Assembly: GCA_000092065.1 (NCBI GenBank)
Contig: CP000593.1
Length of the DNA stretch: 64,000 nt
Source: Ostreococcus lucimarinus
Taxonomy: Eukaryota
Direction: 5' to 3' (one strand)
Shown here: positions 38,177 through 47,770 of the stretch, in pieces
How positions within the stretch are numbered: position 1 is the stretch's first letter
How the letters are laid out: each line of letters starts with the position of its first letter
Translations under genes and position numbers: made by a program
Notes under the pieces: generated by a model
Told to the model about the DNA's origin: nothing
The model's input: the letters and a program-made list of their open reading frames with translations, nothing else
The model's database searches: none

Positions 38177-41100
38177 TCACTTTTCCATCCTTGCCGCTCG
38201 TTTCTTTTTAGCCTTCTCTTCCTCTCGAGCGAGTTTCAACGACCTGGACGCGACGAAGCCTTCAAACGTCAAATCGCCCGTCTTCGCGATCGCCTCCTCG
38301 TCCGAATCGATGTCGTCGTCGGTGTCGTCTTGCGCGAGGATTTGCCTGCCATCGCGCCACTTTAACGTGGACTTTCGGTTGTCGATGCCGATGATCTTGG
38401 CCGTGACGTCGCGGCGAGTCTCGTCTTCTTCTTCTGACGAATATTCGGCCGTTTGCAAACGGTCGCCGGTGTCGGTGTCAAACAGCTCTCGACTTTGATC
38501 GTGGACGTTGCGAGCGACGAAAACATCGCTCCAAAATTGACGCCACACCGCATCGCCGGAGAGCGTACACGTGCGCTTATTGATGATGATCATCGCTTGC
38601 AAGATGAAACCGTATCGCTCGTCGATGGTGACGTTAATCTTCGGGGGCGTTCCTTTCCACTTTTTGACGTCGATGGGCTCGGTCCAGCCGTATTTCACCA
38701 CGCGACGGTTGTTCTCCTCCTTAAAAGCCGTCGACTCCACGTTGCGCGTCGCGATGAATCGCCGCCATCGCGACAAATGAATGGGTTTATTGAGTGTGAG
38801 CTTTTTCGTCTCCACGCTGCAATGCATGTAGGCCAAGTAGCGCATCAAATAAACAATTCCACCGCCCAACGCCGACCACGCGAGCATGTTCAAGATGAAC
38901 CAAACCGCGGGAACATTCACTATGTACGGCTGCACCGCTTCGACGGCCCATCGAATCTCGGTGAACGAAAGGTATTGCCCCGTGAATCGATCGAGAATGT
39001 CAAACGCGAGCGTCCCCGACAAAATCACTTGCGTCACCTCGAGCGTGGTGCTGTTGCGCGCCTGCGCTCGGAAAGCATCCTCTAAGTTTTTCGTCGTCCC
39101 TTCTATCGCCTCGTTGATGCGGAGCTTTCTTCGTGAGCCGATGACGGCGTTCATTTCTCGCAGAGACTCGAGATCGTTGACGCACGCCGCGATGACTTTT
39201 TCCAAGTCAACGGCGCGTCTTTGCAAGCGTTTCCACGACGGTTCCAACTGAAACAAGTCGTACAACACTTGCGACGCGCCGTCGCTCATATCCGCGCTCA
39301 ACTTTTCACGAGACGTGTCGACGTTTTCGAGCGACTCGAGCACGAACTGCTGAGTGGCGCTCAAGATCGTCACCGTCGTCGTGTGATCGGCGAGGCGCGA
39401 ACGAATGCGCGTTACGTTCGTCGGATCGATCTGATAGGTTTCAATCAACGCTCGCGTCTTCTTCAACTCGTCGTTCAGCGCGAAACAACTGCTGAAGACA
39501 CTTTTGATGAACAACGAGCGAGCTTGGAACGCTGAATATGTCGCGAGAAGCTTGTGATGACGTTCGGTGCGCGGACCAAAGACGACGACACCGCGTGAAC
39601 CAAAGACGATGACTTCTTGTTCGTTCAGGTCGTACGCGTAAAACGTCGCGCCGATGACTTGCTTGAGCTCGTTTTCGTTATCTTCACCATCCATGTACGC
39701 CGCGGCTTTCAGTTTTGGCGTCGCGCGCTCGGCGATGATGCACGTAAACTTGTCGCGATTGTCCGGCTCGCCCTTGTATGTGATGTTCAACATGGAGCGC
39801 TGACGCTCGGAAAATAAATTTCCCACCAGCGAGCTCGTGTCTTCGTGGACGTCGGAAAGTAAGCGCGCGAGTAAATCGACGCTGATATCGTTTCGAATTC
39901 GATCGGCGATGCCGTTGACGACGATGCCGTAAGTGATGGCGCCGTTTTCCCGAAAGTTGATGCCGAAAACCTCGATTTGCTGCTGCACCAAGTTACTCTT
40001 GGGCGCCCCGGTGGCGAGCAAGTCTGCCTCGACGTTTACGAATCGCGTTTCGTCGACGTCGAGGACTTTTAGCTCGGTTTTATTGTCGGCGTTGATCCCG
40101 ACCACCATGTTGAATTCGTCCTGCGTCGCGCTCGCTTCCGCGGTGAACATACCGCCCGCGACGCGGTCTCCCGTGCCGAGTTTTCTACAGAAAGAAACCA
40201 TTTCGTTCGATCCCATCGGCACGTATTCGGTGACGATGATTTTCACCGAGTCGAGCAAGATACTTTCACTCAGGCGCGGGTCGCGAATATCGCGACTACT
40301 TTGAACGGCGCCGCCGAGCACGCGTTTTGCCTTTTTGTGCCCGTTCAACGCGTTCGGTGTGAACGCATCGGAGCTCAGCATGTGCGGAGGGATGTACGGA
40401 GACGAGACGTACGGCACGTCTTCGACGTCCGTGATGGTGGAGCGGATGCGGACCCCGATCGAGGGGACGGTGAGGAAAAAATCCGAGGACTCGCGGTCGT
40501 ACCGCACCTCGAGGAGGTGACCAGCTTCGTGCACCAACGAATCTACCGACTGGCGCATCGCGCTCGTGAACCGTCCCGAGGCCGTCATCCTCTGCAAGAA
40601 TTCGCTCCCCTTCTTGGAAATCTTCAACAACGTCGAGTGATCGTACGTCTCGCTCGTCACCTTGAGCGCCGTGATGAAACCAAGCTCACGCAAATCGTCT
40701 AAATCGTCTCGTCCCTCTTCCGAGACGTTCAAATACCTCGGACACGCTCCAAATATCTTTTCTGATTTTGGCGCGTAATCGTAATCGAACACCGCGTTTC
40801 GCACGATGCCCTCGTACACGAGCACCAGGAGCGGCAGCTCGCGAATCCAGGGAGAACGTTTGTTGTTGTTGTTGTTGGAAACCGCAGACTTCGACTTCGA
40901 CTGTTTCTGAGACGCGTCGGTGTACAAACTCAGCATGTACAACAATTTCAACGCCTCGGGCGATTCCTCCATCTCCCGCTCGCGCGACTCGACTTCCCGC
41001 CGACGCCGAGTCGTGGACGAGGCGGAAGTGCTCGAGTCGGCGTCTGAAGCGCTCGAGTCCCGGGCGTCCCGGGCGTAGTGCGAAGAATCATCGTCATCAT

Positions 41101-41227
41101 CGTCATCGTCGACGCGAATCGTTGCGTCCGAATCCGAATCGTAGCCCTGCGGCGCCCCGCATTCCGCGCACGTCGCCGCGCCGCCGCGCACGACGGCCCG
41201 GCACGTCGCGCACCGCGTCGAATCCAT
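38177..41227 (-). CDS. Large conserved-looking hypothetical protein (1016 aa): N-terminal zinc-ribbon, acidic tract, two predicted TM helices near the C-terminal third
   Basis: Uninterrupted ORF with normal composition. CATCRAVV...CAECGAP is a C-x2-C...C-x2-C pattern; hydrophobic stretch VPAVWFILNMLAWSALGGGIVYLMRYLAYM. GTG at 41236, first ATG is 41227. Confidence 0.7.
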   Translation of the reverse strand: MDSTRCATCRAVVRGGAATCAECGAPQGYDSDSDATIRVDDDDDDDDSSHYARDARDSSASDADSSTSASSTTRRRREVESREREMEESPEALKLLYMLSLYTDASQKQSKSKSAVSNNNNNKRSPWIRELPLLVLVYEGIVRNAVFDYDYAPKSEKIFGACPRYLNVSEEGRDDLDDLRELGFITALKVTSETYDHSTLLKISKKGSEFLQRMTASGRFTSAMRQSVDSLVHEAGHLLEVRYDRESSDFFLTVPSIGVRIRSTITDVEDVPYVSSPYIPPHMLSSDAFTPNALNGHKKAKRVLGGAVQSSRDIRDPRLSESILLDSVKIIVTEYVPMGSNEMVSFCRKLGTGDRVAGGMFTAEASATQDEFNMVVGINADNKTELKVLDVDETRFVNVEADLLATGAPKSNLVQQQIEVFGINFRENGAITYGIVVNGIADRIRNDISVDLLARLLSDVHEDTSSLVGNLFSERQRSMLNITYKGEPDNRDKFTCIIAERATPKLKAAAYMDGEDNENELKQVIGATFYAYDLNEQEVIVFGSRGVVVFGPRTERHHKLLATYSAFQARSLFIKSVFSSCFALNDELKKTRALIETYQIDPTNVTRIRSRLADHTTTVTILSATQQFVLESLENVDTSREKLSADMSDGASQVLYDLFQLEPSWKRLQRRAVDLEKVIAACVNDLESLREMNAVIGSRRKLRINEAIEGTTKNLEDAFRAQARNSTTLEVTQVILSGTLAFDILDRFTGQYLSFTEIRWAVEAVQPYIVNVPAVWFILNMLAWSALGGGIVYLMRYLAYMHCSVETKKLTLNKPIHLSRWRRFIATRNVESTAFKEENNRRVVKYGWTEPIDVKKWKGTPPKINVTIDERYGFILQAMIIINKRTCTLSGDAVWRQFWSDVFVARNVHDQSRELFDTDTGDRLQTAEYSSEEEDETRRDVTAKIIGIDNRKSTLKWRDGRQILAQDDTDDDIDSDEEAIAKTGDLTFEGFVASRSLKLAREEEKAKKKRAARMEK

Positions 41228-41483: not shown

Positions 41484-41597
41484 TCTTCCTTAACTCAGCT
41501 GGTAGAGTGTCAGACTGTTAGGAAAAAGTCTCCGTCGAATATGACGGCTGCTCCGATAGAGATCTGGAAGCCGCGGGATCGAAACCCGCAGGAAGAG
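41484..41597 (+). tRNA. trnN(GUU): tRNA-Asn (anticodon GUU, 41517..41519) with 41-nt intron (41521..41561)
   Basis: Hand-folded cloverleaf. Acceptor TCTTCCT/AGGAAGA (7 bp), D-stem ACTC/GAGT with AGCTGGTA loop. Anticodon stem TCAGA/TCTGG, loop CTGTTA|intron|A. T-stem GCGGG/CCCGC with loop ATCGAAA, discriminator G. Intron at the canonical 37/38 position and pairs with the anticodon region (AGTCT:AGACT). Confidence 0.8.
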
Positions 41598-41599
41598 AT

Positions 41600-41609
41600 G
41601 TGTCGACAT
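41600..41609. promoter_or_regulatory. ZDRE-type palindrome GTGTCGACAT directly 3' of the tRNA
   Basis: Perfect match to RTGTCGACAY, 2 nt after the discriminator base; lies inside the 223-bp repeat. Confidence 0.4.
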
Positions 41610-41619
41610 CAAACCTTAC

Positions 41620-41624
41620 TTTTT
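41620..41624 (+). terminator. Probable RNA polymerase III terminator (T5 run)
   Basis: TTTTT located 23 nt downstream of the tRNA 3' end. Confidence 0.5.
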
Positions 41625-41840
41625 CCCATACCCGATTGTCCGTGATGGAAAAGCGACACGACAACACTGTGACTTTCGTCGTTTCGGGGTGACGGATAGT
41701 ACTTTAAAAAATTTATCGCTATGAGTAATAAAAATAAACTTTTTTTTTGAGTTGGGGCACCCCAACATGATAAAACCGCACATCGACGTTGATGTACCGC
41801 ATGTAAGATTTCTCCAGAACCAATCGTGTGAGTGAAGTGG

Positions 41841-42338
41841 TCAAGCCAAGCCGCGTAACTCATCTACCGTAAATTGATACTTGTCGAGACTGCGCTTCGA
41901 AGGCAGCGTGCCGCGCGCTCGGGCATTCTTGAGGCACGTCTTGCGCAGTATTCCTTTTGCGTGCTGCTTGTAATAATTGAGTTGTCTGTAGTTACCATCG
42001 CCGCCGTCCCGCTTCGGCGTATATTGAGCTCTGCTGTAGGCTGGACTCTCGTCCACGTTCTCGCGGCACGCGTGTTTCTGGCTGCGTCCAGCAGCTCGGG
42101 AGTTGAATAAGCCGTCACGCTTCTCTCTCATGTAGGCACCTTTACGTTGATGGAGCTCTCCAGCTGGAATGTCCTTTTCGAGAACTCTCACGTCCGCGTC
42201 GCCAAACGTGAAGATTGGATGTCGTGCGTATTTATGCGAGGCAAGGCGCGCTCTGAGCGAACCCGTCGTCGATCCGATGTACGTTTTGTTACATTTCGCA
42301 TTATCGCTAAACATTTCGTACACGCATCCCGACGGCAT
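41841..42338 (-). CDS. GIY-YIG nuclease-domain protein (homing-endonuclease-like)
   Basis: N-terminus GCVYEMFS...KTYIGSTTGSLRARLASH fits the GIY-(10-11 aa)-YIG...R...H module, followed by VLE. Basic C-terminal half; ATG confirmed at 42338. Confidence 0.6.
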   Translation of the reverse strand: MPSGCVYEMFSDNAKCNKTYIGSTTGSLRARLASHKYARHPIFTFGDADVRVLEKDIPAGELHQRKGAYMREKRDGLFNSRAAGRSQKHACRENVDESPAYSRAQYTPKRDGGDGNYRQLNYYKQHAKGILRKTCLKNARARGTLPSKRSLDKYQFTVDELRGLA

Positions 42339-42516
42339 TTGTCCTGGTTACCTATCTATCCCTAAGAAAATATTGTTGCCAAAAGTGCCTCCTCCTGCGG
42401 TTTGCAGTCACATCCGAGAGACCATAGGTACGCGTATCGCTGCGTGGGCTGCAAGGTCCGGAATGTAGATACCGAACCGCCTGATTTCACACCTGGACGT
42501 TCGTGATCCGTCGAGA

Positions 42517-42707
42517 CCTGACGAAATGACGAACTTGTTTTGTCGTCCACAAATTCGTCAACCCGTCGTTCGGTGACACTTTGTGTGTACCAATGATGAA
42601 AATGACGAAATGTTAAAATATTTTAATGTTTATTTTTATTTTAGATCTATGACAAGCAACAGTGTGGACCTTTATGAAAACAGTTCGTCATTCGTCATTT
42701 CGTCAGG
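42517..42707. repeat. 17-bp perfect inverted repeat (42517..42533 / 42691..42707) around an AT-rich core, with reiterated AATGACGAA/TTCGTCATT motifs
   Basis: CCTGACGAAATGACGAA versus its exact reverse complement TTCGTCATTTCGTCAGG. Further copies of the TGACG-containing motif near 42601 and 42684. Confidence 0.85.
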
Positions 42708-42772
42708 ATCCAAACCATGGTCTTTTTGGTGTCTCGTTGAGTCTTCATATTGCAAATGTACGAATTACAAAA

Positions 42773-43069
42773 TTAGTATGAGCACCAGACGACCGCCGGC
42801 GCGAGCTCCGTCTCCCCTGTGTACCCATTGTCCTTCAGCCACTCGAAGCACCCGTCGCGGTGAATTTCCCAATAGACGCCCTTCTCGTCTCTACCTTGCC
42901 TCAGGTGGTCCTCTTCCATTGGGACCCTGTGGCCCTTTTCCTTCTTGAAGAAGTCCTTGAGCTTATTGCCGACCTTCGTCGCGCTATCTTGACCGCGCGC
43001 AGCCGCTGGCAACCACGTCTGGTATTCGATGAAGATGTCACTGTGTGCATAAAAATGACTTGCGCTCAC
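42773..43069 (-). CDS. Orphan ORF without ATG start (possible terminal exon or gene fragment)
   Basis: 98-codon frame opening with GTG directly after an in-frame TGA; composition looks coding (GVYWEIHRDGCFEWLKDNGYTGE). A 63-nt GTAAGC...CAG intron (43041..43103) could link it to upstream sequence, but no initiator ATG was found. Confidence 0.25.
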   Translation of the reverse strand: MSASHFYAHSDIFIEYQTWLPAAARGQDSATKVGNKLKDFFKKEKGHRVPMEEDHLRQGRDEKGVYWEIHRDGCFEWLKDNGYTGETELAPAVVWCSY

Positions 43070-43169
43070 ATCGGTGTGGGCTCACTATAAAGGACAAGCT
43101 TACATGTCGGAAGAGTTGCCCGAGTCCACATCTCCACCCTGTTCCGCTTCAGTGTCACCTAGAAAGACA

Positions 43170-44810
43170 TCAGACTAAGCCGTCGTTTTGAGAGGGCGCC
43201 GACTTTGCCTTTGGTTTTGCCTTCGACTTTGAAGTGGGTTGCGGCCTGATCTCCTCTTCGATCTCCTCGTCGTCGACCAAATCTTCGTCGATTTCTTCGT
43301 CGTCTTCGTCATCGACTTCGTCGTCTTCGTCTTCGTCGTCTTCGTCTAGAAAGACATCACCCATGACTGCTCTCCAGCCATCAGAACCCATTTCGAATTC
43401 TTCGTCGGTCAAGAGGCAAGAGTCCAACGTTGATTGAATTTCATCGTATTTAAGATCCTTGCCAATGAACACCAGTTCTTGTCGGCGATCACCATAAGGC
43501 CCCTCCCAGTCTTTACGAAGTTCTTGCTTTATCCCCTGTGAGCCGACCCAAGCATTTTTATTCAGCGCGGTCCATCGGCTTGATCCTTCGAGAGAGTAAA
43601 TATTACCAGCCTGACTGAAAACAATTATCAAGTCGTGGGCATCACTGAGCCACGTTACACCCTTCGAACGTAGCAGCACACCAATTTCACCTTCCCTTTT
43701 ACGGCGCTTGAGTTTCATCGCTTCTTGTCGCGCTCGAATATCTTTCACTGCACTCCAGTCTACACTTGGTGTCTCTTCATCTTTTTCTTCATCACGGTCA
43801 TCGGCCTCGAGGGAGCTGAAGAAGCGCTCGACAAATGAGCCTAAAAACCGTTTGGGATGAAAAGGTCTTCTGGCTCGGTAAATGAAAGACGTAATACCGA
43901 ACCGACTATCGTGACGTGTTTGGGAAGAACTTGGTGCAAGCGTGACCTCGCTTAAGGCTGTTTCTCTCATGCGAGCTCGCTTACAGCATGGAGACTCACC
44001 TTTGTCCCTAGCGCCGGCGCAGCATGACTTCACAGATGTTGCTTCTATCTCTTGTTCCCATGTTATGAAACCAGCAAAGTCATTCTCTTTGTAAAGTTTT
44101 GTATTGACGATTCGCGTAACGTCGATCGCGCCGTTCACAGCTTCAAGAATATCAGCACGTGAATTGAGAAGTTGTATCTGCGCTTTAATCTCGGCGAGTT
44201 GTTCGTCATCGACAGTGTCGACCTTGTTCAATACGACGACATTCGCGTACTCTATCTGTTCAGCCAACAATTGAGAGTAAGACTGCCTGTTCACAGCTGA
44301 CGCCCTGAAAGAATCAATCATGTCGAGAAAGTCACCTGCAGCGATGACCGTCACGCACGTATCCAGCCGCGCCAGTGTGCTCAAATGTTCATGCTCATCA
44401 ACGTGCGCAGCTTCATGATCGTGATCGTCCTCACAATTTGCGAAGAGTTTCGCAATTTCCGCCGGTTCCGACACTCCTGATGCCTCTACGATCATGTAGT
44501 CAAAATTGCCACTCTTGGCCATGTCCCCGATTTGTTTTACAAAGTCTCCGCTCAACGAACAGCACACGCATCCGTTCTGCATGGCAACCACCTCGTCGCT
44601 CTGCAGCAAAGCGGAATCATCGATTAATTTTTTGTCGATGTTCAACTCCGCGACGTCGTTCACGACGACGGCACACCGAAACTTTCCGTTCGCGTCTCGC
44701 TTAGCTTCGAGCACGCGTTTCAGAGTTGTCGTCTTCCCAGCGCCGAGGAACCCGCACAGCGTTGTCACCGGCAATCGATTATGATTGGCGATTGCGGCGG
44801 GTGTGGACAT
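43170..44810 (-). CDS. COG0523/CobW-family metallochaperone GTPase (ZNG1/ZCP-like zinc chaperone)
   Basis: P-loop GFLGAGKTT, canonical CxCC metal motif (NGCVCCS), His-rich stretch DDHDHEAAHVDEHEH, CobW_C region and a long Asp/Glu tail. ORF start 44915 is GTG, first ATG is 44810. Confidence 0.9.
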   Translation of the reverse strand: MSTPAAIANHNRLPVTTLCGFLGAGKTTTLKRVLEAKRDANGKFRCAVVVNDVAELNIDKKLIDDSALLQSDEVVAMQNGCVCCSLSGDFVKQIGDMAKSGNFDYMIVEASGVSEPAEIAKLFANCEDDHDHEAAHVDEHEHLSTLARLDTCVTVIAAGDFLDMIDSFRASAVNRQSYSQLLAEQIEYANVVVLNKVDTVDDEQLAEIKAQIQLLNSRADILEAVNGAIDVTRIVNTKLYKENDFAGFITWEQEIEATSVKSCCAGARDKGESPCCKRARMRETALSEVTLAPSSSQTRHDSRFGITSFIYRARRPFHPKRFLGSFVERFFSSLEADDRDEEKDEETPSVDWSAVKDIRARQEAMKLKRRKREGEIGVLLRSKGVTWLSDAHDLIIVFSQAGNIYSLEGSSRWTALNKNAWVGSQGIKQELRKDWEGPYGDRRQELVFIGKDLKYDEIQSTLDSCLLTDEEFEMGSDGWRAVMGDVFLDEDDEDEDDEVDDEDDEEIDEDLVDDEEIEEEIRPQPTSKSKAKPKAKSAPSQNDGLV

Positions 44811-44986
44811 GATGTACGGCGATCGACGTCTCCGCGCGCGAACGAGCCGAAGAGGCGTCGCGAAGTGCGGCGATGCGCGCGCGTCGTGCACGTGTCGACG
44901 ATTCGCGTCGTGCACGTGTCGAGGATCGTCGTACGCGACGCCCCGCGAAGCCCATCACGGATCGCGTCGCGACGCGCGTCGTAAAC

Positions 44987-45143
44987 ATGTCGACACGCAT
45001 GTCGACATATTTACCCACGCGCGTGTACGCATTGAACCCCGTGATGCATCTATATACGAAAAACGTCTCGACGCACATGTCGACATATTTCGACATATCC
45101 AAGTACCACCGAGATGTGTCGACACTGCGGCGGATGTCGACAT
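44987..45143. promoter_or_regulatory. Cluster of five perfect ZDRE decamers (RTGTCGACAY) in the COG0523/ZIP divergent promoter
   Basis: ATGTCGACAC 44987..44996; ATGTCGACAT 44999..45008; ATGTCGACAT 45077..45086; GTGTCGACAC 45116..45125; ATGTCGACAT 45134..45143. A one-mismatch copy GTGTCGACGA lies at 44892..44901. TATAAA at 45167..45172. Confidence 0.6.
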
Positions 45144-45368
45144 TTTGTCGTTCGCGAGTCGTGACTTATAAACGACCGCCCTCCATCGCGCCGGTTCGGT
45201 TCGTATGCCGCTTTAGTTTGTGCGCAGCCGCACTTACCGACGCCGGCGAAGACGACGACGACGACGGAAACGATGACGAACGAAAACACGAAGAACACGA
45301 AGACGACGATGCCGCCGCGCGAACGCGCACGCGGTGCGAGGACGGTCGAGCGACGACGAGGGCGAACG

Positions 45369-46802
45369 ATGCGCTGCGCGAGCGCGCTCGGTGGTGGCAT
45401 CGCGATCGTCGCGAGCGCGCTCGCGCAGCGCGGCGCGCACGCGTCCGGCGCGCACGCATTCGAATGGGCTGGAATCTTTGAGACGCCAGAGAATGAATAC
45501 GTGTGGCAGGCGCAAAAGGTGGCCGATAAGTACGCCGCCGATACCATGAAAATGGTCATCTACGACGAAATCGCCGCCGGACACGACGAGCTCGAAGCCC
45601 GCGAGGATAGCGGTGATACCGCAATCGGGGGAGCTTGTACGACGGCTAAGATACGAGATAGTGTTTTGACACCTGATAGTGGGTGTGTCAACCTTGAATT
45701 TGACAACACCTGGCACACGACGCCGTTTAAGATTAATACGACTGGCATCGACGCGATCTCAATCTTCGCTGAGCACGTTCCCACCGAGTTCGAGCGCGAC
45801 GCGCACTATCTCAAGGACCTCCACGGAGATGACGTGGTGCCAAAAGCTTCACTTCCCGAAGCATCCACCGTGAGCGAATCGAAATCAAAACCGTGGGCCA
45901 ACGCCATTGGGGCGGCAATTATCGTCAATATCGTCACACTTTCTGGTGTGGTCTTTCTCATCCCGAGTATCGCTAAGAAGCAGAAAGCGTACCCTGAAAC
46001 TGTGAGTTGCACAATTAACTCGTTTGCCGCCGGCGCACTTCTTTCGGCTGCGTTTTATCTGATGTTCTACGAAGCCACGCATTTAATCAAACCTGCTGGC
46101 TCGGATGAGGCAGAGCAGACCGCATGGTGGGCTTCCGCTTCTATCTTCGGCTTTCTCATGGCCTACTTCATCGACTTTGGTATCTCTGTCGTGTTCCCAA
46201 CTCTTGGAAATACAGCGAAGACAACCGATGCGGAACTTGCAGTCAAAGGCGCTCAAGATGACTGTGATACTTGTACTTGTAACTCACACAAGTATCGCGT
46301 TCGAAGTGGTATCATTCTTGGAGATTTCATGCACAACCTAGTGGATGGTATTTTCATTGGCTTCGGCTTTCTGAACTGCGACAGTACCATGGGATGGTCG
46401 ATCACCGCCGCGACCGTCTATCACGAAATCGCTCAAGAGCTTGCTGACTACTTGGTGCTCGTAGACCCCTTCCAGGGCGATCTCGCGCCGTTGCCGACGC
46501 TGACTTTAAACTTCGTTTCCGGCTTGAGTGTCATTCTTGGCGTCCTCATTAGTGTTGGATCGGGAAATAACAACGACTTCTGGCATGGACTGCTGCTCGC
46601 CTTCGGTGCTGGAGTCTATCTGCAAATCGCCGCCGCAGAGTGCATGCCCCGAGTATCAGTGAGCGCCACTTCACCTCGTCTTCGCGCGACGAGCATTCTC
46701 ACCTTCATCGTCGGCGTTGTTGCCATCAGTCTCGTGCTCCTCAACCACAAGCATTGCACAGGCGGTGGCGGTGGCGGAGACTCACACGCACACGCGCACT
46801 AA
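45369..46802 (+). CDS. ZIP-family (ZRT/IRT-like) divalent metal transporter with N-terminal extracytoplasmic domain
   Basis: ZIP signatures GDFMHNLVDGIFIG and YHEIAQELADY, multiple TM helices, Cys/His-rich loop (DDCDTCTCNSH), C-terminal GGGGGGDSHAHAH. ATG at 45369 gives a signal-peptide-like start (MRCASALGGGIAIVASALA); the upstream in-frame ATG at 45273 is also possible. Confidence 0.85.
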   Translation: MRCASALGGGIAIVASALAQRGAHASGAHAFEWAGIFETPENEYVWQAQKVADKYAADTMKMVIYDEIAAGHDELEAREDSGDTAIGGACTTAKIRDSVLTPDSGCVNLEFDNTWHTTPFKINTTGIDAISIFAEHVPTEFERDAHYLKDLHGDDVVPKASLPEASTVSESKSKPWANAIGAAIIVNIVTLSGVVFLIPSIAKKQKAYPETVSCTINSFAAGALLSAAFYLMFYEATHLIKPAGSDEAEQTAWWASASIFGFLMAYFIDFGISVVFPTLGNTAKTTDAELAVKGAQDDCDTCTCNSHKYRVRSGIILGDFMHNLVDGIFIGFGFLNCDSTMGWSITAATVYHEIAQELADYLVLVDPFQGDLAPLPTLTLNFVSGLSVILGVLISVGSGNNNDFWHGLLLAFGAGVYLQIAAAECMPRVSVSATSPRLRATSILTFIVGVVAISLVLLNHKHCTGGGGGGDSHAHAH

Positions 46803-47025
46803 TGAGAGCGGTAAAAAAATGTCAATTACTATCAAATCAAGTTGTGGCAAACACACCCACGGCCACTGACGGAGATCTATTTTTCAAGCTAGAGGATCAT
46901 ATAAATTGTAAATCGAAACGCTCTTCGTAATTTACGGCACCTGTTCCTCGATCTCCTGGCGAACATCGATGAATTATTTCGATAAGATGTCCCAGATGTT
47001 ACCCACACCACGGTACTTGTGAAGC

Positions 47026-47369
47026 TTAATCCAGATACGCGCGCACGCCTTTCTGAAGCATGGTCGGTACCTCGGCTTTCAACTTGTCTGGGAGCGTCGC
47101 GTCGGCGTCCTTGACCTCGCGCAGAAAATCGAGCACCCTATTGGTGGAGAACTGTCAGGGAAGGATCCAAGGTGGCGGCATTTGATACACAGGTTGCGCC
47201 AGGCTTTGTTAGACAGCAACGGACTCGATTTTACATCATCCGCCAGTATTGCAATTCCTACACGCTTCCCATTTAGCCAGTGCTTGGGCTCCTCGAATTG
47301 GTCTGTTTCGGGATTATACAGACTGAGCATCTCTGGGGTCAAATACTCGTCCCACACGGAGGCGTTCAT
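47026..47369 (-). CDS. Small orphan gene, 2 exons (47369..47235, 47151..47026); may be 5'-truncated at the repeat junction
   Basis: Two coding-looking frames join exactly by an 83-nt intron (47152..47234) with GTAAAA donor, CTAAC branch and pyrimidine tract + CAG. The open frame continues upstream to a TTTACAG acceptor-like site at 47419..47425, abutting the right repeat. Confidence 0.3.
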
Positions 47370-47432
47370 CAGGTGCCCATCGAGTTCCTTGTATTGCTTC
47401 AATCTCGTCGCGGTATCTCTGTAAACAATTTT

Positions 47433-47532
47433 GCTGGTAGAGTGTCAGACTGTTAGGAAAAAGTCTCCGTCGAATATGACGGCTGCTCCGATAGAGATCT
47501 GGAAGCCGCGGGATCGAAACCCGCAGGAAGAG
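47433..47532 (+). pseudogene. 5'-truncated copy of tRNA-Asn (D-loop to 3' end, intron included)
   Basis: Identical to 41498..41597 but lacks the acceptor 5' strand and D-stem 5' strand, so it cannot fold. Confidence 0.85.
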
Positions 47533-47534
47533 AT

Positions 47535-47544
47535 GTGTCGACAT
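47535..47544. promoter_or_regulatory. ZDRE-type palindrome GTGTCGACAT in right repeat copy
   Basis: Perfect RTGTCGACAY match, the counterpart of 41600..41609. Confidence 0.35.
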
Positions 47545-47770
47545 CACACCTTACTTTTTCCCACACCCGATTGTCCGTGATGGAAAAGCGACACGACAAC
47601 ACTGTGACTTTCGTCGTTTCGGGGTGACGGATAGTACTTTAAAAAATTTATCGCTGTGAGATTCACCCCCATGGGGGGAGCTCGGCTTCCCTGATTTTTT
47701 TGTCACTTTTTCACGACGCCGCGAACCCCTCGTCCCGAACTCCGAGACGCGACGCGAGACATCCATCCCA

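Follow-up and report, generated by a model that had tools for sequence, protein, structure and literature searches.

The DNA analysed here (called the window below) is a 64-kb stretch of the nuclear genome of Ostreococcus lucimarinus CCE9901, as identified by its JmjC protein (XP_001421140.1) and its GIY-YIG open reading frame (ORF; XP_001421138.1). It contains an island, called the zinc island below, which carries a COG0523/ZIP gene pair and is bracketed by two copies of a direct repeat, the left one belonging to an intact tRNA-Asn(GUU) gene. The analysis of this locus leads to the conclusions that: (i) a nuclear tRNA gene of a eukaryote is here a hot spot of integration, with several alleles that recombine; (ii) the island is fairly probably composite foreign DNA, integrated in the tRNA gene by a Campbell-type single crossover from a presumably circular donor. 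The interpretation given in a first-pass annotation of the same DNA, which was made from the sequence alone, is supported.

The two copies of the repeat (228 nt each, positions 41498-41725 and 47433-47660, start-to-start spacing 5935) differ at only three positions, i.e., 41612 (A/C), 41629 (T/C) and 41721 (A/G), and they are the only copies in the window. A repeat of this length and similarity within 64 kb is far beyond chance. The 223-bp repeat previously reported (221 of 223 identical) is the same one, cut 5 nt short. The tRNA gene is recognised by Rfam (RF00005) with 49 bits for a gathering score of 29. ARAGORN in bacterial mode gives no tRNA in the window; this is a false negative due to the 41-nt intron, the tRNA gene being supported by both Rfam and folding. 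When the intron (41521-41561, after position 37) is removed, the 73-nt product has a perfect cloverleaf with the anticodon GTT, as expected from the complete, foldable left tRNA of the first-pass annotation. In the right copy the tRNA is present only from G15, in the D-loop, onwards: this copy comprises the 3' 100 nt of the pre-tRNA gene, intron included (47433-47532), and continues 128 nt into the downstream flank. The start in the D-loop had been correctly located, but the length of the flank had been given as 123 nt. The insert is thus bracketed by a direct repeat of the tRNA 3' part, with the intact tRNA at its left end.

A 36-nt core of the repeat was compared with 241 million JGI metagenome records. 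It was found in 10 contigs, all from this locus, and no viral contig matched. A SINE or any other dispersed family, i.e., the alternative put forward by the first-pass annotation, is thus rejected. The empty site which that annotation proposed to look for exists in three contigs (L033, L038 and L039; Table 1), in which the same flanks occur without the island. Filled contigs are 99.4-99.8% identical to the window over these flanks. The empty alleles have private single-nucleotide polymorphisms (SNPs) and a private 104-nt variant of an insert located in the T-arm of the tRNA gene, which rules out that they are assembly chimeras. The zinc island was thus inserted at this site, and natural populations are still polymorphic for it.

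The site is also empty in sister lineages. The orthologues of the left flank protein (MJ1567-like) form a graded series with 92, 66, 61, 59 and 55% identity. In the 92% lineage (L026-L028, L036, L037) a single tRNA-Asn, which keeps the same anticodon-loop intron, is localized between the JmjC and the MJ1567-like genes. In the more distant Ostreococcus L029 (66%) these two genes are adjacent, with a gap of 804 bp and no island. The gap ranges from 574 to 804 bp in the two lineages (L026-L029), and the gene order is common to L026-L028 and L029: P450, mitochondrial carrier, JmjC, MJ1567-like, TraB, RRM. No tRNA is detected by Rfam in the gap of L029 (9197-10000). On the opposite strand of this gap there is a fragment that resembles a tRNA D-arm (GCTCAGTTGGTAGAGCG) and may belong to a tRNA gene that is permuted or disrupted.

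The repeat copies were then tabulated in every contig. The right copies of the wild filled contigs L007, L008, L011, L018, L034 and L035 are of a host type which they share with the empty-site alleles, i.e., an 87-nt T-arm insert, GTCAACATC and GACAAAACTGTAAC. The left copies of the wild filled contigs are of another type (element type): they have no T-arm insert and contain GTCGACATC or GTTGACATC, plus GACAACACTGTGAC. In CCE9901 both copies are of the element type. With a host-type right copy and an element-type left copy, the tRNA 3' part that is now joined to the host 5' end was brought in by the island, while that of the host itself came to lie beyond it. This is exactly the pattern predicted by a single reciprocal crossover, and the two copies are attL/attR-like.

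Several copies are mosaic. The left copy of L021 is of the host type up to GTCAAC and of the element type beyond; in L023 the change of type falls between two SNPs at a distance of 6 nt; the pattern of L039 is partly mixed. In these copies, as in those of the L018 type, the crossovers lie at differing positions within the 141-228 nt of homology, with no short fixed core. Such a variable crossover point is more in line with homologous recombination, or with frequent conversion, than with a recombinase acting at a fixed core.

In many wild alleles the tRNA-Asn gene is enlarged by a D-loop insert (100 nt), a T-arm insert (87 nt, the 104-nt variant being that of L033 and L038) or both. In window coordinates the D-loop insert is localized between 41499 and 41500, i.e., 2 nt from the repeat boundary, and the T-arm insert between 41588 and 41589 (47523 and 47524 in the right copy); the window itself has neither. 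Examples are L015 1807-1906, L018 2839-2925, L026 9533-9620 and L036 3465-3731. The inserts start with GTAAGT, contain AACTGAC and end with a pyrimidine-rich tract plus CAG, i.e., they have the full signals of a spliceosomal intron within a tRNA gene. They are precise presence/absence polymorphisms in O. lucimarinus and in the 92% sister lineage, and their conservation between lineages is 98% vs. 86% for the alignment over the tRNA and the upstream intergenic DNA. An introner family is not supported, GTAAGT...CAG inserts being found only at this tRNA in the window and 48 loci.

In three contigs (L010, L023 and L047) the right end of the island is joined to its left end via one repeat copy. The order in L010 is: COG0523, truncated primase-helicase, a junction without GIY-YIG, an element-type repeat, island right end, ZIP, start of COG0523. 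In L023 it is: GIY-YIG, repeat, island right end, ZIP, COG0523. These attP-type junctions, known from assembled contigs, correspond to a circle or to a tandem array, both giving the same junction. In genomes of the L007 and L018 kind, the identity between the two repeat copies extends over only 91 nt up to the T-arm insert. This is probably less than the largest k-mers of the assemblers, and a simple k-mer chimera is thus unlikely for junctions of the L010 type. Over its left 1.7 kb, L010 corresponds to a host LHC gene region (GC 0.66), joined through the 78-nt tandem repeats; this represents either a second chromosomal context or a misjoin.

A second, unrelated insert, called X, occurs at the same site. 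X (3839 bp, GC 0.634) is found in L030, L031 and L040-L047. It encodes a 487-aa ORF, which is present on 51 contigs, and contains 60-nt tandem repeats. The ORFs of X have no match in Pfam or NCBIfam, and the AlphaFold model of the 487-aa ORF (pLDDT 34.6) is unusable. The right end of X meets the partial tRNA at the same point as the zinc island, i.e., immediately before GCTGGTAGAG (G15). Its left end is a tRNA-Asn 3' part of its own, which is 90% identical to the resident one and has a different anticodon-loop intron and its own downstream T-run; the identical stretch open to a crossover is about 22-24 nt. Such a diverged left part is not a target-site duplication, and this speaks against an origin by a mere break and fill. 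The junction nucleotide common to X and the zinc island indicates that there is something special about this position. All four combinations of X and zinc island exist (Table 1), and the natural states of the site are: empty, filled, filled without the GIY-YIG unit, X alone, and X in tandem with the zinc island. It was also considered that X could be the downstream region of a paralogous tRNA-Asn locus. This is unsupported, eight of the eight places shown for its ORF (24 contigs) being at the present locus. In L030 (1-20; same contig as L045, 11640-11679) the repeat stops 4 nt early and is followed by CTAGTATGACAAGCA, then by the end of the contig. CTAGTATGACAAGCA matches neither the zinc island nor the JmjC flank, which hints at a third kind of insert at the site.

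The composition of the island differs from that of its surroundings. Its interior (5.7 kb) has a GC content of 0.518 vs. 0.635 in the remaining window, and is the lowest-GC stretch of this length in the 64 kb (0.9% of windows are equally low), in agreement with the AT-richness noticed earlier. The GC content at third codon positions (GC3) is 0.53 for COG0523 and 0.62 for ZIP, and 0.70-0.87 for the neighbouring genes. The left neighbour gene (38177-41227) has a modest overall GC (0.56) and a host-like GC3 (0.73); the compositional boundary is thus sharper in GC3 than in raw GC. The «different intron signals» that had been ascribed to the island could not be tied to anything specific.

With Pfam, the ORFs of the island give a weak GIY-YIG match, cobW/CobW_C and Zip, so that the GIY-YIG-like ORF and the COG0523/ZIP pair of the first-pass annotation are both recovered. 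No integrase, transposase or recombinase domain is found in them (Pfam, NCBIfam), as had been stated from the sequence. A recombinase is also lacking in the ORFs of X and of contig L025 (Pfam, NCBIfam) and was not detected via sequence searches of the PDB. No capsid or ATPase domain is found in the island or in L025, the island ends have no relevant inverted repeat, the small ORFs have no match in PHROGs, and tblastx reveals no hidden module shared among the island right end, X, L024 and L025.

Debris of an abundant mobile element makes up the left quarter of the island, as judged from the homologies given below and from the size of the two protein clusters involved: 898 members for the GIY-YIG ORF and 601 members, at 90% identity, for the primase-helicase. 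The 98-aa ORF, formerly considered as an orphan, is the tail of a Prim-Pol primase-helicase: by BLASTP it is 93% identical to residues 644-733 of a 733-aa protein of L025 (E=9e-60), for which the Prim-Pol/DUF5906 assignment was obtained with Pfam. At the DNA level, positions 41822-43044 are 93% identical to the metagenome contig L024 over 1226 nt, and the homology across this region also covers L025. The order in L024 matches that of the island, i.e., decayed primase-helicase, 195-nt repeat, GIY-YIG ORF. L025 (1-13622) and L024 (1-16348) are low-GC contigs (0.49-0.52). Besides a Prim-Pol/DUF5906 primase-helicase and a GIY-YIG ORF, they have fragments of methylase and ubiquitin genes and numerous ORFs without known domain. 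The primase-helicase cluster has no match in IMG/VR. From their content, L024 and L025 look like an abundant, genome-resident and uncharacterised element of Ostreococcus-like algae, possibly located on the low-GC outlier chromosomes.

The GIY-YIG ORF scores 16.7 bits with Pfam PF01541, under the cut-off of 22.6, and its 60%-identical relative in L025 scores 26.4 bits. Y7, Y20, G22, R31, H35 and N79 are conserved in the family alignment. The family consensus R-E-G-E reads R-K-G-A in the window copy (Glu replaced by Lys), and this copy may thus be inactive. A paralogue is present on another chromosome of CCE9901; a look-up of the GIY paralogue P0049, aimed at a second genomic copy, gave nothing on record. 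The 1073-bp unit that comprises the GIY-YIG ORF is missing in eight contigs (L005, L006, L007, L009, L010, L012, L042 and L043). The junction then reads CGATTG-CCA-AAACCATGG, the left repeat is only 141 nt long, and the deletion stops directly after the 195-nt repeat.

COG0523 and ZIP form a divergent pair, 462 nt apart, and their predicted domains fit a zinc-acquisition pair. The relatives of COG0523 are variants of the same species (at least 97% identity), then a protein of Cymbomonas (53%), then assorted protists; as judged from these matches, COG0523 has no orthologue in Mamiellales. A shared arrangement with a host-like phylogeny in related genomes, which had been named as the finding that would speak against an integrated island, is thus not what is observed, the identity falling from 97% to 53%. 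An exhaustive search for relatives of ZIP (509 aa as read in the window, 475-477 aa as called in metagenomes) gives one protein at 81%, the rest being at 49% or less. The 81% relative (P0350) belongs to a cluster of 268 members, on contigs of up to 466 kb, with a host-like GC3 (0.74); the search for its context gave only a 1.6-kb contig. The foreignness of ZIP is thus less clear than that of COG0523. Plausibly the zinc genes are of selective value, i.e., a cargo useful in zinc-poor seawater. It must be noted that in many wild contigs positions 44843-45094, in the intergenic region of the pair, are swapped for an unrelated AT-rich sequence of 326 nt (L006 106-430, L008 5229-5562), and that both promoter versions exist on the single contig L010.

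Relatives of the island ORFs in prasinoviruses and giant viruses had been suggested as a check. IMG/VR was tested in six ways (att core, GIY, COG0523, ZIP, Prim-Pol and the GIY family alignment) and no relative was found among its viral contigs; the single-protein scans detect close relatives only. These six negative searches do not support a transfer by prasinoviruses or by any other virus. A tRNA-Asn(GUU) is common to all prasinoviruses, and O. lucimarinus has only 44 nuclear tRNA genes (PMC3673656); no link between the prasinovirus tRNA-Asn and the present locus was found.

The following scheme would account for these results. A divergent ZIP and COG0523 pair would have been joined, in the donor, to a fragment of a Prim-Pol primase-helicase/GIY-YIG mobile element. 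The incoming DNA, presumably a circle, would have carried a tRNA-derived segment of 141-228 bp, and a single reciprocal crossover would have taken place between this segment and the chromosomal tRNA gene, most likely by homologous recombination of the host. At the left junction an intact tRNA would have been remade from the host 5' end and the 3' part supplied by the element, and at the right junction the host's own 3' part and flank would have been pushed aside. The repeat copies would go on recombining, by conversion, excision or unequal exchange. We infer the circular intermediate, the role of host recombination and the source organism. In the earlier claim of a circle integrated in a tRNA gene, the insertion stands and is borne out by the attL/attR pattern, and of the two routes then proposed (site-specific or Campbell-type) the variable crossover favours the Campbell one; the circle is deduced.

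Several observations weigh against this scheme. The island contains no recombinase, no replication origin and no intact replication gene, which leaves the autonomous upkeep of a circle unexplained. No free circle was observed among the contigs, and a tandem duplication yields the same junction of right end, repeat and left end; moreover, metagenome contigs, from which the junctions are known, mix strains. The element type is distinguished from host alleles by only 3-4 SNPs and the insert, and L039 has part of the pattern; the element-type repeat could thus simply be one more allele of the host, in line with an origin other than from an episome. Finally, two unrelated inserts end at the identical left limit G15, which is unexpected from random homologous crossovers and hints at a site-specific step.

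A site-specific integration would be due to a recombinase supplied in trans, e.g., the tyrosine recombinase of a resident polinton-like/Prim-Pol element acting at the D-arm/anticodon region of tRNA-Asn, the islands being non-autonomous, satellite-like passengers. This best explains the common G15 boundary, at which both the zinc island and X stop to the nucleotide, and the identity of only about 22-24 nt available to X, which is short for homologous recombination. Different islands have accumulated in tandem at a single att site (L041-L043, L047), as is typical of integrase systems, a remnant of a primase-helicase element lies inside the island, and polinton-like viruses with Pri-Hel plus a tyrosine recombinase or an rve integrase are known in protists, with 1-2 capsid genes in Ostreococcus (PMC10120064). 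We nevertheless consider it unlikely: an integrase-like domain is absent from the island, X and L024/L025, the Prim-Pol contigs L024/L025 contain no tRNA-Asn fragment, the crossovers are spread over 228 nt instead of being fixed, and the homology is far longer than a typical att core. A broader proposal is that the tRNA-Asn is the attachment site of an active system of bacterial style, in which cargo islands excise as circles, re-integrate and possibly pass between cells or strains, mobilised in trans by the Prim-Pol (polinton-like) element via an unrecognised recombinase. This is conceivable and is offered as a tentative idea; if true, it would mean a horizontally exchanged, flexible gene pool for trace-metal acquisition in a picoeukaryote.

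The structure could also have been formed without any mobile element, by a double-strand break near the D-loop of a fragile tRNA gene. In its repair, foreign or ectopic DNA would have been captured and 228 bp duplicated, either because staggered ends were filled in or by template switching, followed by unequal crossing-over and allelic recombination. Mobility genes are indeed absent from the island (Pfam, NCBIfam), the two repeat copies are near-identical in the CCE9901 haplotype, any direct repeat automatically gives tandem and mosaic forms, and the part of the yeast study considered here describes horizontally acquired genes that neighbour tRNA genes without an att-like structure (PMC2715888). 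Such an origin is judged quite improbable, since two independent captures would be needed at one nucleotide, since the two tRNA parts of X, left and right, have only 90% identity and differ in intron and downstream flank, so that the left one is not a target-site duplication, and since the wild left copies are consistently unlike every empty-site allele seen. The segment could finally be ancestral to Ostreococcus, and recombination between the repeats would then have removed it from the other lineages and from part of the O. lucimarinus strains. Direct repeats readily give rise to deletions, and the SNP pattern of L039 could be that of an excision product. Against it are: (i) two successively more distant lineages without the island; (ii) a single copy of the tRNA 3' part where it is readable (92% lineage); (iii) an island GC3 far from the host GC3; (iv) a COG0523 without Mamiellales orthologue; (v) the mobile-element debris within the island. 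Ancestry followed by loss is thus very improbable.

Integration by a Campbell-type crossover, the reading retained, can be compared with known systems. Like prokaryotic islands and prophages of tRNA genes, the zinc island is inserted in the 3' part of a tRNA, with regeneration of an intact tRNA, and is bracketed by a direct repeat of this 3' portion; it has a deviant composition, a cargo of the adaptive type (metal uptake) and mobile-element debris inside; close relatives have empty sites, and different islands are stacked at one tRNA. It differs by its host, i.e., a eukaryotic nucleus, and by the fact that no integrase gene was found. Moreover, the repeat (141-228 bp) is much longer than the usual att core and includes the tRNA intron, the crossover is variable, and the duplication starts from the D-loop and covers two thirds of the tRNA. 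Having neither integrase nor short fixed core, the locus is not filed as a member of the prokaryotic family. As in the Campbell-type integration of yeast integrative plasmids, a shared homologous segment is duplicated on either side of the insert, and the crossover is variable, reversible via the repeats and prone to tandem multimers. Here the process would be natural and not engineered, and a putative donor circle would have had to gain a host tRNA region. Efficient homologous recombination has been reported in the transformation of Ostreococcus tauri.

Rolland et al. (2009) described horizontally acquired genes beside tRNA genes in Saccharomycetaceae yeasts (PMC2715888). According to the part of that study considered here, foreign genes are found, as in the present case, in conserved synteny blocks of a compact eukaryotic genome; proximity to tRNA genes is what it describes, without duplicated tRNA part, att-like repeat or presence/absence in populations. 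Bellas et al. (2023) described endogenous elements of polinton-like viruses and virophages in protists, with 1-2 copies in Ostreococcus (PMC10120064). The zinc island has in common with polinton-like elements a primase-helicase gene, a nuclease of the GIY-YIG type and a GC content unlike that of the host. It differs in that only a 90-residue tail of the primase-helicase is present, that the cargo is mostly of cellular type, and that neither terminal inverted repeats nor genes for a capsid, an ATPase or an integrase were found in the island. In the archaeal model of Sugahara et al. (2012), as far as the part considered goes, the heterogeneity of tRNA genes in populations is likewise tied to the integration of mobile DNA (PMC3293823); that system being archaeal, the comparison is a lead only. 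Literature searches gave no account of this island, nor of any island bracketed by tRNA parts in green algae or in eukaryotic nuclei.

Adaptation in bacteria and archaea relies centrally on genomic islands in tRNA genes, and the full structural signature is present here in a eukaryotic nucleus. The host is among the smallest and most abundant marine eukaryotes, and the segregation of the insert in the ocean makes the locus a concrete, testable case of the entry and exit of foreign genes in a compact eukaryotic genome. It can be traced in existing metagenomes, and Ostreococcus strains can be cultured. Since cells with flanks about 99.5% identical may differ by the presence or absence of a metal-uptake module, the interpretation of ecotypes is also concerned.

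Table 1. Features of the tRNA-Asn locus (positions refer to the window) and contigs representing the states of the site.
Feature	Position or contig	Strand	Remarks
Left flank host gene, MJ1567/MJ1566_N-domain protein, 1016 aa	38177..41227	-	syntenic in sister lineages
tRNA-Asn(GTT), intact nuclear gene	41484..41597	+	exons 41484-41520 and 41562-41597; canonical 37/38 intron
Left repeat copy, attL-like	41498..41725	+	tRNA from G15 to 3' end, plus 128 nt of flank
GIY-YIG presence/absence unit, 1073 bp	41639..42711	.	last 87 nt of left repeat, T-run/hairpin spacer, GIY-YIG ORF
GIY-YIG nuclease-like ORF, 165 aa, multi-copy family	41841..42338	-	weak Pfam match
195-nt repeat	42516..42709	.	two more copies in L025, on either side of its primase-helicase gene
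Truncated primase-helicase, 98-aa ORF	42773..43069	-	C-terminal 90 residues of a Prim-Pol/DUF5906 protein
COG0523, CobW/ZNG1-type G3E GTPase, 546 aa	43170..44810	-	Pfam cobW 6e-41, CobW_C 1.5e-18; GC3 0.53
Divergent intergenic (promoter) region	44843..45272	.	78-nt tandem repeats at 44983-45090; five copies of TGTCGACA
ZIP-family metal transporter, 509 aa	45273..46802	+	Pfam Zip 1.2e-21; GC3 0.62
Right-end segment of the island («B side»), 630-nt tail	46803..47432	.	
Right repeat copy, attR-like	47433..47660	+	partial tRNA 47433-47532, plus 128 nt of flank
Right flank host gene, JmjC/cupin hydroxylase, 390 aa, XP_001421140.1	47771..48943	-	adjoins the tRNA in empty-site genomes
Empty-site contig, 29 kb	L033		flank identity to window 98.7-99.1%
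Empty-site contig, 26 kb	L038		flank identity to window 98.8-98.9%
Empty-site contig, 9 kb	L039		flank identity to window 99.5-99.7%
X alone between the two flank genes	L040		right repeat of host type
X, then zinc island with GIY unit	L041, L044, L046		
X, then zinc island without GIY unit	L042, L043		
X between two parts of the zinc island	L047		with deletion

The longest unannotated stretch of the island does not exceed 630 nt. Near its right end, a 107-aa ORF (47079-47402, minus strand) lacks an ATG, and its reading frame already begins within the repeat, so that this ORF is presumably a remnant or does not code for a protein.

Two RefSeq/GenBank accession pairs exist in CCE9901 for the GIY-YIG protein (XP_001421138.1/XP_001422817.1) as well as for the JmjC protein (XP_001421140.1/XP_001422815.1). 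The region, island included, would thus be present twice in the reference assembly, and the second copy would probably be a segmental duplication onto another chromosome.

The palindrome TGTCGACA has seven copies in the window (about one expected), all within the island: at 41601 and 47536, i.e., one per repeat copy just 3' of the tRNA, and at 44988, 45000, 45078, 45117 and 45135 in the COG0523-ZIP intergenic region, three of these five being within the 78-nt tandem repeats. It could be a putative binding site for a regulator or the iterons of an origin. Its central CpG is the place of the G/A and C/T variants that separate the repeat alleles.

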